From: Angustibacter luteus
Lineage (GTDB): Bacteria > Actinomycetota > Actinomycetes > Actinomycetales > Angustibacteraceae
DNA: 64,000 bases
Assembly: GCF_039541115.1 (NCBI RefSeq)
Contig: NZ_BAABFP010000002.1
Span: 62,001-126,000, forward strand
Direction: 5' to 3'
The notes under the pieces were generated by a model, which saw only the letters and a list, made by a program, of their open reading frames with translations, did not search any database and was not told the DNA's origin. Positions 37,408 through 59,405 of this stretch are shown piece by piece (position 1 is the first letter of the stretch; each line of letters opens with the position of its first letter). Both the position numbers and the translations under genes were made by a program.

Positions 37408-37472
37408 CCGCAGATGTCCCGCTATCGGGTGCTATCAGACCGGTTTCGCACCGGATAGCGGGACACGTGCGG
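37408..37472. repeat. REPIN-like imperfect inverted repeat
   Basis: 25-bp arms (22/25 complementary), 15-nt spacer. Confidence 0.75.
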
Positions 37473-45830: not shown

Positions 45831-46495
45831 GACAGGGCTCGGTGGAAGCGGTAGTACAGGTACGCGGCGGCCTCCCGGACCACGTACTTGGCGTCGGCCG
45901 CGGGGCTGGCCACGCTCGGGCCGGTCGTGGTCGGTGAGCCGTAGGCGGTGATGCCCTGGTCGGCGAGCATGGTCGTGCTGCGCAGCTCGTGCCAGCGGTC
46001 GGTGACGACCACCGCCGACGTCCAGTGGTGGGCGCTCAGGACGGGCGCGGCCAGCTGGACGCTCTGCAGGGTGTCCCGGCCCTTCTCGACGGCGACGACG
46101 TCCCCGGCGGGCACACCGTGCCGCACCAGCCAGTCGCGCCCGCTGCCACCCTCGGTGTAGGTGTCCCCCGGCTGCTTGCCGCCGACGGTCACCACCTTCG
46201 TGGCCGTGCCCGACTGGTAGAGCGCCAGGGCGTGCTCCAGGCGGGCGAGCAGGTACGGCCCCGGGGTGCCGTTGAACTGGGCGGCACCGAGGACCACCAC
46301 GGTGTCGGCTCCGCGGGCGTCGTCGGCCCGGCCGTGGGTCACCACGAGCGCCGCGCTCCAGACGAAGAGCGCCACCGCGACCGCCAGCAGCGCGACCAGG
46401 GCGCCCAGGACCAGGCGCAGCGGCGAGCGGCGCCGGCGCGATGGCGCTGCTGGTGGCGTGCTCGGACGCGACGCGGTCGCCGCGCCGCTACCCAC
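45827..46495 (-). CDS. YdcF/DUF218 family membrane protein
   Basis: VVLGAA, ARL, GG....TE, VVTD.WH.LR, REA. Confidence 0.85.
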   Translation of the reverse strand: MGSGAATASRPSTPPAAPSRRRRSPLRLVLGALVALLAVAVALFVWSAALVVTHGRADDARGADTVVVLGAAQFNGTPGPYLLARLEHALALYQSGTATKVVTVGGKQPGDTYTEGGSGRDWLVRHGVPAGDVVAVEKGRDTLQSVQLAAPVLSAHHWTSAVVVTDRWHELRSTTMLADQGITAYGSPTTTGPSVASPAADAKYVVREAAAYLYYRFHRALS

Positions 46496-47720
46496 CGCTC
46501 ACCGACAGCTCGGCCTCGCGGATCATCCGGGCGGACTCGCCCTGCAGCTCACGGCTGTCCAGCCAGCCGTCCGGCAGGGCAACCCGCTTCTGCGGCGTGC
46601 CGGCCCGACCCCGCTGGCCCTCGGCCGGGTCGCCCGGCCACGGCTGGCTGAGGTCGAGCTCGGCGACCAGCGCGTCGAGGTCGGCGAGCGTGTCGACCAT
46701 CGCGAGCGCGGCGCGGGACGGCTGGCCGACCGCGAAACCCTTGAGGTACCAGGCGACGTGCTTGCGGATGTCGCGGCAGGCCTTGCGTTCGCCGTCCGGG
46801 TAGCCGGCCTCGGCGTAGTGCTCGGCCAGCAGCTCGACGTGCCGGCGCATCGCCGCAGTGACCTCGGCGAGGGTGGGCGTCACCCGGACCTGCTGGCCCG
46901 CGAACGCGGCCGCGAGGTCGGCGAACAGCCACGGCCGGCCCAGGCAGCCGCGGCCCACGACGACGCCGTCGCAGCCGGTCTGGCGCACCATCTCGAGCGC
47001 GTCGTCGGCGCTCCACACGTCACCGTTGCCGAGCACCGGGATGCTGGTGACGGCCTCCTTCAGCTGGGCGATCGCCGTCCAGTCCGCGCGCCCCGAGTAG
47101 TACTGGGCCGCCGTGCGGCCGTGCAGGCTGACCGCAGCGACGCCCTCCTGCTCGGCCGTGCGTCCGGCATCCAGGAAGGTCAGGTGGTCGTCGTCCACGC
47201 CCTTGCGCATCTTGACCGTGACCGGGACGCCGGCCGGGCCGGCCGCGCGAACCGCCTCGCGGACGATGTCGCGAAAGAGGGTGGCCTTCCAGGGCAGGGC
47301 CGAGCCACCGCCCTTGCGGGTCACCTTGGGGACAGGGCAGCCGAAGTTGAGGTCGATGTGGTCCGCGCGGTCCTCGTCGACGAGCATCCGGACGGCCGCG
47401 CCCACGGTCGCCGGGTCGACGCCGTACAGCTGGACGCTGCGCGGGCTCTCGCCCGGGCCGTGCTGGATGAGCCGCATCGACTCCGGCGAGCGCTCCACCA
47501 GCGCCCGCGACGTCACCATCTCGCTCACGTACAGGCCCGCGCCGACGCCGGGCAGGCCGGCGTCCGCCAGCGCCTGGCCAGCGAGCTCGCGGCAGAGCTG
47601 ACGGAACGCCGCGTTCGTGATGCCCGCCATCGGCGCCAGCACCACGGGCGTGCCGATCCGGTGCGGCCCGATCGACAGCTCGGGCACGGCCGGTGCCTCG
47701 GGCAGGGCGATCGTGGTCAT
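46488..47720 (-). CDS. dusB: tRNA-dihydrouridine synthase
   Basis: LAPMAGIT, DLNFGCP, HGRT, GNGD, GRGCLGRPW. Confidence 0.94.
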   Translation of the reverse strand: MTTIALPEAPAVPELSIGPHRIGTPVVLAPMAGITNAAFRQLCRELAGQALADAGLPGVGAGLYVSEMVTSRALVERSPESMRLIQHGPGESPRSVQLYGVDPATVGAAVRMLVDEDRADHIDLNFGCPVPKVTRKGGGSALPWKATLFRDIVREAVRAAGPAGVPVTVKMRKGVDDDHLTFLDAGRTAEQEGVAAVSLHGRTAAQYYSGRADWTAIAQLKEAVTSIPVLGNGDVWSADDALEMVRQTGCDGVVVGRGCLGRPWLFADLAAAFAGQQVRVTPTLAEVTAAMRRHVELLAEHYAEAGYPDGERKACRDIRKHVAWYLKGFAVGQPSRAALAMVDTLADLDALVAELDLSQPWPGDPAEGQRGRAGTPQKRVALPDGWLDSRELQGESARMIREAELSVSGG

Positions 47721-47780
47721 CCCCCCATTGTCCCAGGTTCGGCCGAGTGATCGAAATCCTCGACCCGCCACGGGCCCCAG

Positions 47781-47837
47781 GTGTGTCGCGGCGCAACGCC
47801 ACTGCGCACCTATTGGAGTAGCGGCACGCAGTCCCAA
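47781..47837 (+). repeat. Left 57-bp inverted repeat
   Basis: 55/57 identical to reverse complement of 48937-48993. Confidence 0.95.
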
Positions 47838-47853
47838 CCGAGCCGGCCGCCCC

Positions 47854-47862
47854 TTGTCCACA
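47854..47862 (+). promoter_or_regulatory. DnaA-box-like 9-mer TTGTCCACA
   Basis: Exact actinobacterial DnaA box, 50 bp upstream of ORF start. Confidence 0.5.
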
Positions 47863-47912
47863 GATTCGCGTCCGGAGCGTTGGGACCCGCACAGGACCGG
47901 CAGAGTGATCCA

Positions 47913-48893
47913 GTGCCCCGCCGCCGCGACGTCGACCCCGCCGCAGTCGACGAGCTCCTTCGATCGCGAGAGCGAGTCGTCACGCACGCCGAGCTCGTCG
48001 CCGCCGGGATGCCGTTGAGCACCGTGTGCTCGCGGATCCAGCGAGCCGGCGCATGGCAGCGCCTCCACCCCGGCGTCGTCCTGGCCCACTCCGGCGTCCC
48101 GGCCCGTCGCGAACGCCTGCTGGGGGCCCTCGCATACGCCGGCCCGGGAGCCGTCCTCACGGGCAACGCGGCGCTCGGCCTCCACGGCCTGGGTGCGGCA
48201 CGCCACCACCGCGATCTGCATGTGCTCATCCGTGAGAAGGCGCGGCGTCAGTCACGACCTGGCCTCATCATCGAGCGCACGAGACGGCTCCCCGACCCGG
48301 TCGTCCGCGGCGGGCTGCCGGTCGCCCCGCCGGCTCGAGCACTCATCGACGCGTGCCGGCAGATCGAGCGGCTGGACGATGTCCGGGCCCTGGTCGCGGA
48401 CGCCGTCCAGTCACGTTTGTGCTTGGTGTCCGACGTCCAAGAGGCTCTGGTCGCCTCCGCACGCCAGCGCACCGCCTTGGCCCGGGAGGTGCTGGCCGAG
48501 GTCGCGGCAGGTGTGCGATCCGCTGCGGAGGCTCGAGTGCGGGTGGTCTTCGCCAGGCACCACATTCCGCAGCCGAGGTGGAACTGGGCGCTCCACGGCG
48601 AGGACGGCACGCACCTGCTCACGCCCGACGGATGGTGGCAGGACATCGGGTGTGCGCTGCAGATCGACTCGATGGCATGGCACCTGCTGCCGGCGCTCTA
48701 CAAGAGGACCCAGCAGCTGCAGCGGCTGATGAGCGTGCACGACATCCCGTTCCTGCCGGTAGCGCCGGGGGATGTCTTCACCGACGAGGCGGCCTTCGTG
48801 CGCGAGGTCCGAGCCTTTCTGGCCAGGCATGCCGACCACGTCCCCAGTCCGGGGGTCGTGGCCCGCCCGCCTCTGACCGACCTCCGCCGCTAA
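47913..48893 (+). CDS. AbiEi-like wHTH protein with C-terminal DUF559/Vsr-like PD-(D/E)XK nuclease domain
   Basis: VVTHAELVAAG..WQRLHPGV, AVLTG.AAL.LHG, PPARALID, RSAAE, PQPRWN, TPDGWW..LQIDSMAWH; CAGAGT 6 nt before GTG. Confidence 0.78.
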   Translation: MPRRRDVDPAAVDELLRSRERVVTHAELVAAGMPLSTVCSRIQRAGAWQRLHPGVVLAHSGVPARRERLLGALAYAGPGAVLTGNAALGLHGLGAARHHRDLHVLIREKARRQSRPGLIIERTRRLPDPVVRGGLPVAPPARALIDACRQIERLDDVRALVADAVQSRLCLVSDVQEALVASARQRTALAREVLAEVAAGVRSAAEARVRVVFARHHIPQPRWNWALHGEDGTHLLTPDGWWQDIGCALQIDSMAWHLLPALYKRTQQLQRLMSVHDIPFLPVAPGDVFTDEAAFVREVRAFLARHADHVPSPGVVARPPLTDLRR

Positions 48894-48936
48894 CCTCATC
48901 TGCCACGAGCTTCGACCCTTTTGCGGCGCCCGCCCA

Positions 48937-48993
48937 TTGGGACTGCGTGCCGCTACTCCAATAGGTGCGTAGTGGCGTTGCGCCGCGACAGAC
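48937..48993 (-). repeat. Right 57-bp inverted repeat
   Basis: Reverse complement of 47781-47837 with 2 mismatches. Confidence 0.95.
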
Positions 48994-49022
48994 CAGAGTG
49001 GCCCGCGCCACAGTGGGGGCGG

Positions 49023-49340
49023 TTAGAAGCCGGAGCCCTTGGGGAGCTCGATGTCGGGCTTGGCGAGCTCCTCGACGTTGACGTCCTTGAACGTGATCAC
49101 CTTGACGTTCTTGACGAAGCGGGCCGGACGGTAGACGTCCCACACCCACGCGTCGTTCATGGTGACCTCGAAGTACACCTCGCCGCCCTCGCTGCGGGCC
49201 TGGACGTCGACCGAGTTGGCCAGGTAGAACCGGCGCTCGGTCTCGACCACGTGCGAGAACAGGCCGACGACGTCCCGGTACTCCCGGTACAGCGAGAGCT
49301 CCATCTCGGTCTCGTAGTTCTCGAGGTCCTCGGCGCTCAC
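49023..49340 (-). CDS. DUF2469 family protein
   Basis: [24 protein letters not shown]...[15 protein letters not shown]; follows rnhB. Confidence 0.93.
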
Positions 49341-55704: not shown

Positions 55705-55800
55705 CGCTTCCGCCGCTCAGTCCGGTTTCCGCCGCTCGAACCGGATCCCAGCCTCGAAGACCGGACTGAGCGGCGGAAACCGGACTGAGTGGCGGAAGCG
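55705..55800. repeat. Long inverted repeat with internal 19-bp periodicity
   Basis: 33-bp arms 55705-55737 and 55768-55800 (32/33 complementary); subunit TTCCGCCGCTCAGTCCGGT. Confidence 0.88.
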
Positions 55801-59322: not shown

Positions 59323-59338
59323 CCCGACGCCCCCTCCA

Positions 59339-59401
59339 CGCACCATTCGCGCTACACGTGGCTATGGAGGCCCGAAAACCACGTCAAGCGCGAATGGTGC
59401 G
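59339..59401. repeat. REPIN-like imperfect inverted repeat between convergent genes
   Basis: 23-bp arms (21/23 complementary), 17-nt spacer. Confidence 0.78.
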
Positions 59402-59405
59402 GGGG

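Follow-up and report, generated by a model that had tools for sequence, protein, structure and literature searches.

A single gene in the 64,000-nucleotide stretch of Angustibacter luteus DNA analyzed here (the window) is enclosed by two long inverted repeats and belongs to a family whose members are now annotated mostly as antitoxins or hypothetical proteins. The question raised by this locus is whether it represents a mobile element, an antitoxin that has lost its partner, or the enzyme-encoding half of a repeat family organized in the manner of REP sequences and their RAYT genes. The locus comprises the following features.

46488-47720, minus strand: Dus gene, neighbor
47780-47837, plus strand: left arm, a member of the dispersed repeat family F1 (13 copies, 10 loci)
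47854-47863, plus strand: DnaA-box-like motif TTGTCCACA, 56 nt upstream of the start codon, its position conserved in homologues
47901-47906, plus strand: possible -10 hexamer, picked out by eye, 6 nt upstream of the start codon
47913-48893, plus strand: gene for a 326-aa protein with an AbiEi-fold DNA-binding part and a Vsr/EDxHD-like nuclease domain
47931-48506, plus strand: winged helix and AbiEi C-terminal domain, residues 7-198 (AbiEi 6y8q, Z 11.8, rmsd 5.7, 184 aligned)
48519-48836, plus strand: Vsr-like nuclease domain, residues 203-308 (I-Bth0305I 3r3p, Z 11.6, rmsd 2.3, 96 aligned)
48937-48994, minus strand: right arm, family F1, 32 nt past the stop codon of the convergent DUF2469 gene
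49023-49340, minus strand: DUF2469 gene, neighbor

The preliminary description of the locus had recognized inverted repeats around one ORF that runs opposite to both of its neighbors and had noted no obvious target duplication, all of which holds. The arms, 58 nt each, 97% complementary and spaced by 1099 nt, differ by 2 mismatches across a 55-nt core and form the longest of the 710 inverted pairs in the window (runner-up in length, 75%); the 326-aa ORF is the only one between them, and its start codon at 47913 is backed by alignments with homologues. No target duplication is visible by eye at the arm ends. The internal hairpin that had been ascribed to each arm is not evident in the window, where a single arm folds no better than shuffled sequences (z -0.2 to -0.7), but is present in the related genome G014, in which the orthologous repeat is a perfect hairpin (z -8.2), and the window arm is therefore a decayed palindrome. 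A search of Rfam gave no match at E 0.1, and a scan for sigma-70 promoters and terminators found nothing.

The architecture suggested earlier for the gene product, an AbiEi-like part joined to a Vsr/DUF559-like domain, is confirmed by fold comparison of a structure model (pLDDT 93.7). Its DNA-binding part matches the Rv2827c-type fold (Z 8.1) in addition to AbiEi and is detected by the PADLOC AbiEi profile (E 1e-12), and the nuclease domain, for which I-Bth0305I is followed by NGO0050 (Z 10.4) and Vsr (Z 9.9), has conserved residues E206, D239, D252 and H257, corresponding by spacing to E170, D196, N208 and H213 as given for I-Bth0305I (PMC3239194). E206 and D239 are invariant among 14 very distant members of the family. 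The last Asp of the EDxHD motif (D222 position) is replaced by T266, a position assigned by sequence spacing from H257 rather than by superposition, with Thr found in 65/83 and 126/148 sequences of the clade, and the strand Glu is replaced by Gln (Q250). Given these two substitutions, cleavage by the window copy may be poor or absent, and its catalytic activity is, as judged from sequence, uncertain; several paralogues keep Asp at that position and hence the full E-D-H-D set. Neither DDE nor HUH transposases appear among the fold matches listed, and both domains match folds other than those of DDE, serine or tyrosine transposases, although such lists cannot exclude a family. A sequence search of solved structures gave nothing below E 0.04, and matches to chorismate mutase (NCBIfam, weak) and Isochorismatase (Pfam, below cut-off) were rejected as chance. 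No RAYT (PF01797) was detected anywhere in the genome that contains the window (G000), the control being positive in 6/14 genomes. The same is true of AbiEii (PF08843; control positive in 3/14 genomes), so that the earlier remark that no AbiEii toxin adjoins the gene, whose neighbors are Dus and DUF2469, extends by this search to the genome as a whole.

The arms belong to a family that is dispersed through the chromosome as solo and doublet copies, as had been predicted. An ungapped scan of the 4.16-Mb genome detected 13 copies and a profile search 10 loci, several of which are inverted doublets. A census of intergenic repeats, based on a simple purpose-made gene caller (3719 genes), returned 16 clusters with at least 4 segments, 3 of them tRNA-like. 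A stop codon is found no more than 60 nt away from 7/13 segments of the arm family and 41/50 of the largest family, and the arm family is enriched between convergent genes (6/13, versus 186/1743 of intergenic gaps).

Profile searches of the same genome revealed eight full-length paralogues, 27-50% identical over their aligned parts, and one decayed copy. Each paralogue had been expected to have a flanking repeat of its own, and this is the case for seven of the eight, which are bracketed on both sides by repeats that are mutually unrelated among paralogues; the eighth has one copy of a 5-member family, downstream only. The seven paralogue-linked families consist of 50, 37, 27, 22, 20, 17 and 13 segments and account for 7/8 of the dispersed intergenic families with at least 13 segments. 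The repeat around the window gene is also dispersed behind stop codons chromosome-wide, and further families are represented in the window itself.

55705-55800, no strand given: inverted doublet of family F8 (24 loci by BLAST, 37 census segments)
59336-59405, no strand given: copy of family F4, cognate to the paralogue at G000:C2:731592-732485

F8 was initially an orphan family; an iterated profile independently detected the paralogue at G000:C8:333620-334702, which was then seen to be bracketed by two other F8 copies. A further candidate, at C4:250107, was rejected as an ordinary Vsr. The decayed paralogue (G000:C5:866008-866500) has an internal stop and deletions and has kept its upstream box and palindrome.

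Among control genes of 700-1300 nt, 20/1565 have a common flanking repeat at ≥30 bits. At ≥40 bits six genes do, four of which are paralogues, the other three bracketed paralogues being missing from this control because the gene caller had shortened them. Seven other same-family repeat pairs enclose ordinary genes, one of them around a single gene. Families are also found apart from a gene. A 5-member orphan family of G000 brackets a paralogue in G004, and G000, from which that gene is absent, retains one copy at the orthologous site of the clade. A family of 31 segments (29 loci) has no bracketed gene in G000; a cognate gene was sought by profile and in five relatives and none was found, the repeat itself being unmatched there. 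One copy of this family lies in the window at 37408-37472 (G000:C2:99408-99472), and at two sites where G004 and G006 contain a full cassette G000 has the 29-locus family instead. A 12-locus orphan family forms pairs 150-280 bp apart at G000:C7:235237-235579 and C8:292008-292238, and these closely spaced pairs may be what is left of deleted cassettes.

In related genomes the gene shares its descent with its arms and with the dispersed copies. The locus is filled in G002, G003, G004, G005, G007, G011 and G014 and empty in G001, G008, G009 and G013; the G010 site coincides with an assembly gap and hence is not counted as truly empty. In five genomes both arms carry the same private changes, and the arms differ between species around an invariant central CCTA. 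Four arm variants were searched against 14 genomes, a search in which palindromes can count twice. The window arm had 12 matches in G000, 17 in G003, 1 marginal match in G011 and 0 in the remaining 11 genomes; the G004 arm had 39 in G004, 24 in G005 and 4 in G001; the G002 arm had 30 in G002 and 10 in G005; and the G014 arm had 57 in G014, 55 in G007, 32 in G005 and 18 in G004, with fewer in G000 (7), G006 (7), G012 (6) and G001 (1). As the compared genomes are kin and not independent, no statistic was drawn from this matrix. The private changes and the dispersal of each arm in its own genome agree with the prediction that the arms co-vary with the gene across species. G001, the sister of G004, has lost the gene and is left with half an arm and 4 matches to the G004 arm versus 39, and G008, G010 and G013, where the gene is absent at the site, have 0 matches to any of the four arms. 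The gene-less genomes G006 and G012, with 7 and 6 matches to the G014 arm, are uninformative because they are 80% and 73% complete. Empty sites in relatives had likewise been anticipated and were found, though the same-genus empty site represents loss; the G001 site was rejected as a pre-insertion state, since half an arm is kept and G001 nests among carriers. Turnover of single repeats was followed at nine G003 repeat loci, whose orthologous sites in G000 contain the same family (five), an older variant (one), a remnant (one) or another family (one), or are cleanly empty (one). One G014 repeat pair, 1 kb apart (L183), encloses no recognizable paralogue.

A wider collection of 80 related loci, reduced to 69 by leaving out 11 with short flanks, contained a flanking repeat common to both sides at 49/69 loci, compared with 79/4692 mismatched flank pairs; the 20/69 without a common repeat at 30 bits are also close homologues. 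In an even sample of the phylum, the family is present in 50/117 Actinomycetota genomes (four unpublished genomes being left out of this count), at up to 15 copies each. Among 24 phylum-wide best hits, from which three unpublished loci and two with short flanks were left out, a common repeat at 30 bits was found in nine and none in 15, and with only 9/24 having it the association of gene and repeat is common rather than universal. In two unrelated genomes, G105 and G125, 11/11 and 6/6 of the paralogues tested matched their own downstream flank best, with 8 and 4 of these matches reaching ≥30 bits. The family as a whole contains 38,198 clusters at 50% identity, and the closest named relative of the window protein (81%) is from an Angustibacter sp. 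(L041).

The window gene has long resided at one site, evolves under purifying selection and is mostly passed on vertically. Its clade is represented by a single copy per genome at the same site in eight genomes, the trees of the gene and of Dus are congruent, the two closest pairs give a dN/dS of about 0.12, and Dus is still nearby at 11/80 loci, across several families. Matches were found in 1/72,556 plasmids and 0/50,697 phages. The suggestion that the locus is a mobile element thus stands as far as the dispersed repeats and some empty sites are concerned and falls with respect to active mobility, the agreement with Dus indicating mostly vertical descent. Occasional gain, loss and flipping of the unit between its arms is nevertheless evident. 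Cassettes of other clades (L135, L143 and L146) occupy sites in G003, G008 or G010 that correspond in G000 to gaps of 20, 54 and 1 bp behind a stop codon, and the racemase-side cassette (G000:C7:299650-300612; L130, L139) has one orientation in G000, G006 and G007 and the opposite one in G001 and G002. Three copies of one clade occur in each of G003 and G008. No strain-level insertion event was seen among the compared pairs, in which filled and empty sites are too diverged (80-90%) for fine junctions. Synonymous divergence between G000 and G003 is about twofold higher for the gene (1.01) than for its neighbors (0.51 and 0.38), which may reflect weak codon bias or local mutagenesis.

The DnaA-box-like motif in the window is identical to the high-affinity DnaA box given for Streptomyces and Mycobacterium (PMC4285127) and would be expected to bind DnaA. 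A TCCACA core is found 40-100 nt upstream of the start, at near-fixed positions, in 53/69 homologues versus 78/3718 called genes, and precedes all seven bracketed paralogues. Box and repeats co-occur, with repeats at 43/53 loci that have the box versus 6/16 that lack it, and the box is rare in the phylum sample (2/24). TCCACA boxes in G000 are located also upstream of dnaA, dnaN, dnaB, gyrB, recA and ssb, as well as of genes for ComEA-like HhH, UPF0102, secretion ATPase, DUF4192 and DUF222 proteins, and could mark a DnaA regulon or, alternatively, a regulon for DNA uptake in actinobacteria. A leaderless transcript starting from the putative -10 hexamer is possible for the window gene. Seven homologues (L067, L072, L091, L102, L113, L118 and L119) have neither box nor repeats and instead contain a TGTC(A/G)G motif about 30 nt upstream of the start, which we take to resemble a DNA-damage (PafBC-type) promoter. 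Long ORFs at G000:C2:633488, C5:306808 and C8:133780, one of which was scanned and matches DUF222, are preceded by a short conserved leader that combines a TCCACA box with a TGTCGG motif.

The reading that we favor, with a probability of roughly 0.6, is that the window gene encodes a non-jumping enzyme that recognizes its cognate repeats and on rare occasions nicks and copies them, the two together forming a two-part system organized like REP/RAYT. The one-to-one pairing of paralogues with repeats, their co-descent and the turnover of repeat sites between G000 and G003 count for it; the Thr substitution, the gene-less 29-locus family, the ordinary genes that are also bracketed and the unflanked homologues count against. 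Recognition of the cognate repeat would be a function of the AbiEi-fold part, as suggested by the AbiEi and Rv2827c antitoxins, which are reported to bind inverted repeats in their own promoters (PMC7319586), and from the left arm this part could also repress its own promoter. The Vsr/EDxHD domain would occasionally nick the repeat or a hairpin form of it, upon which host repair or strand invasion could homogenize the arms, flip the cassette and seed new solo and doublet copies, which would settle behind stop codons. Through the DnaA-like box, expression or activity may be coupled to replication or to the uptake of DNA. That the window protein itself binds or nicks the repeat is what we infer from these comparisons.

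The main rival, which we regard as unlikely, accepts the binding and dispenses with the movement: the protein would be a regulator or chromosome organizer with a nuclease that is vestigial at least in the window clade, and host recombination would spread the repeats, which would be retained as binding sites or as elements at transcript ends. The AbiEi fold is known to bind inverted repeats (PMC7319586), and the loss of acidic residues to T266 and Q250, the repeat copies behind stop codons, often between convergent genes, and the persistence of an orphan family without a gene are all in keeping with such a role. A vestigial domain would, however, hardly keep E206 and D239 invariant in 14 very distant members or the full E-D-H-D set in several paralogues, and the swapping of unrelated families at the same site between species fits turnover better than a conserved regulon. 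Less probable again is that the whole cassette transposes autonomously as an insertion sequence, with the arms as its terminal inverted repeats and the doublets as MITE-like derivatives. Such transposition would explain the L135, L143 and L146 cassettes, missing from G000 at short gaps of 1 to 54 bp, and the three copies of one clade each in G003 and G008, but not the lack of near-identical copies among paralogues that are 27-50% identical, the single copy at one site in eight genomes with a tree congruent with that of Dus, the Dus genes still nearby at 11/80 loci, or the near absence from plasmids and phages, and no target duplication is visible.

Two further explanations rank lower still. 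A replication-coupled, structure-specific nuclease guarding the host against hairpins or cruciforms, with repeats nearby since gene ends are insertion hot spots, would be in line with the DnaA-like boxes shared with dnaA, dnaN, dnaB, gyrB, recA and ssb and with the different promoter motif of the repeat-poor subgroup; the one-to-one pairing of paralogue and repeat, which neither a structure-only enzyme nor hot spots would be expected to produce, makes it very improbable. Least credible, and already largely refuted, is the reading as an AbiEi-type orphan antitoxin (type IV), with the flanking repeats serving as operators or lying there by coincidence: the AbiEi profile and fold matches that speak for it are offset by the unmatched AbiEii in a genome where the neighbors are Dus and DUF2469, by an additional 105-residue nuclease domain, and by a second arm downstream and copies genome-wide.

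The favored repeat-copying enzyme has its closest counterparts in the comparison class of REPtrons and TIRtrons (TIRYT), which includes REP/REPIN with RAYT. As described for those systems (PMC3733652; bioRxiv 10.1101/2021.07.10.451892), a non-jumping, vertically inherited enzyme gene lies between cognate repeats, each genome has several gene-repeat pairs, plasmids have almost none, and copies of the repeat, solo or as inverted doublets, are found behind stop codons and between convergent genes; the earlier comparison with RAYT genes flanked by REPs is thus upheld for the layout, in both the cognate flanking repeats and the solo and doublet copies. The enzyme differs, being a fusion of AbiEi and Vsr/EDxHD parts and not an HUH (Y1) tyrosine transposase, and for this reason the system is set apart from REP/RAYT despite its similar working. 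Other differences are the host phylum, Actinomycetota, the unit length of 30-70 bp, the DnaA-like box upstream and the ability of the cassette to be inverted between its arms. The arm alignment of five genomes contains no terminal GTAG tag, its conserved core being the central CCTA. The window system departs from AbiE systems, homing endonucleases and insertion sequences as well. It shares the winged helix and C-terminal domain fold with the AbiEi and Rv2827c antitoxins but lacks an AbiEii partner and has a nuclease domain and repeats on both sides and genome-wide. With I-Bth0305I and Vsr it has in common the catalytic fold and the E, D and H residues (PMC3239194), whereas the D222 position is Thr in the window clade, the DNA-binding domain is different, the gene is free-standing between intact Dus and DUF2469 genes with no intron or intein, and no cytosine methylase adjoins it. 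In its single ORF between inverted ends, its short copies that are non-autonomous and its filled and empty sites, the system recalls insertion sequences and MITEs, from which it is distinguished by the lack of identical copies and of a visible target duplication, by long residence and by purifying selection.

These comparisons point to an undescribed repeat-keeping system with a REP/RAYT-like layout and an unrelated enzyme. No description of the gene-repeat association was found in the literature, covered mostly without subscription papers and with supplements aside, so that an earlier description is possible. The spread of CGTC repeats without RAYT is treated as an open question in PMC3733652, and no enzyme is named for mycobacterial repeats in the available part of PMC3184786. 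The locus offers a testable candidate enzyme for short palindromic repeats in bacteria that lack RAYT, one genome with seven natural enzyme-repeat pairs constitutes a ready specificity matrix, and the family is a possible source of sequence-specific nickases. In its broadest form, to which we would give even odds, the proposal is that AbiEi-Vsr/DUF559 fusions are the missing enzymes of the short palindromic repeats of Actinomycetota. They would constitute a second REP system of independent origin, with DnaA-box control in this lineage and each paralogue recognizing, nicking and propagating its own repeat, possibly extending to mycobacterial interspersed repeats. The repeat that brackets one paralogue in G105 (L223; G105:C1:1186380-1188280), with seven matches in that genome, presumably resembles the latter.
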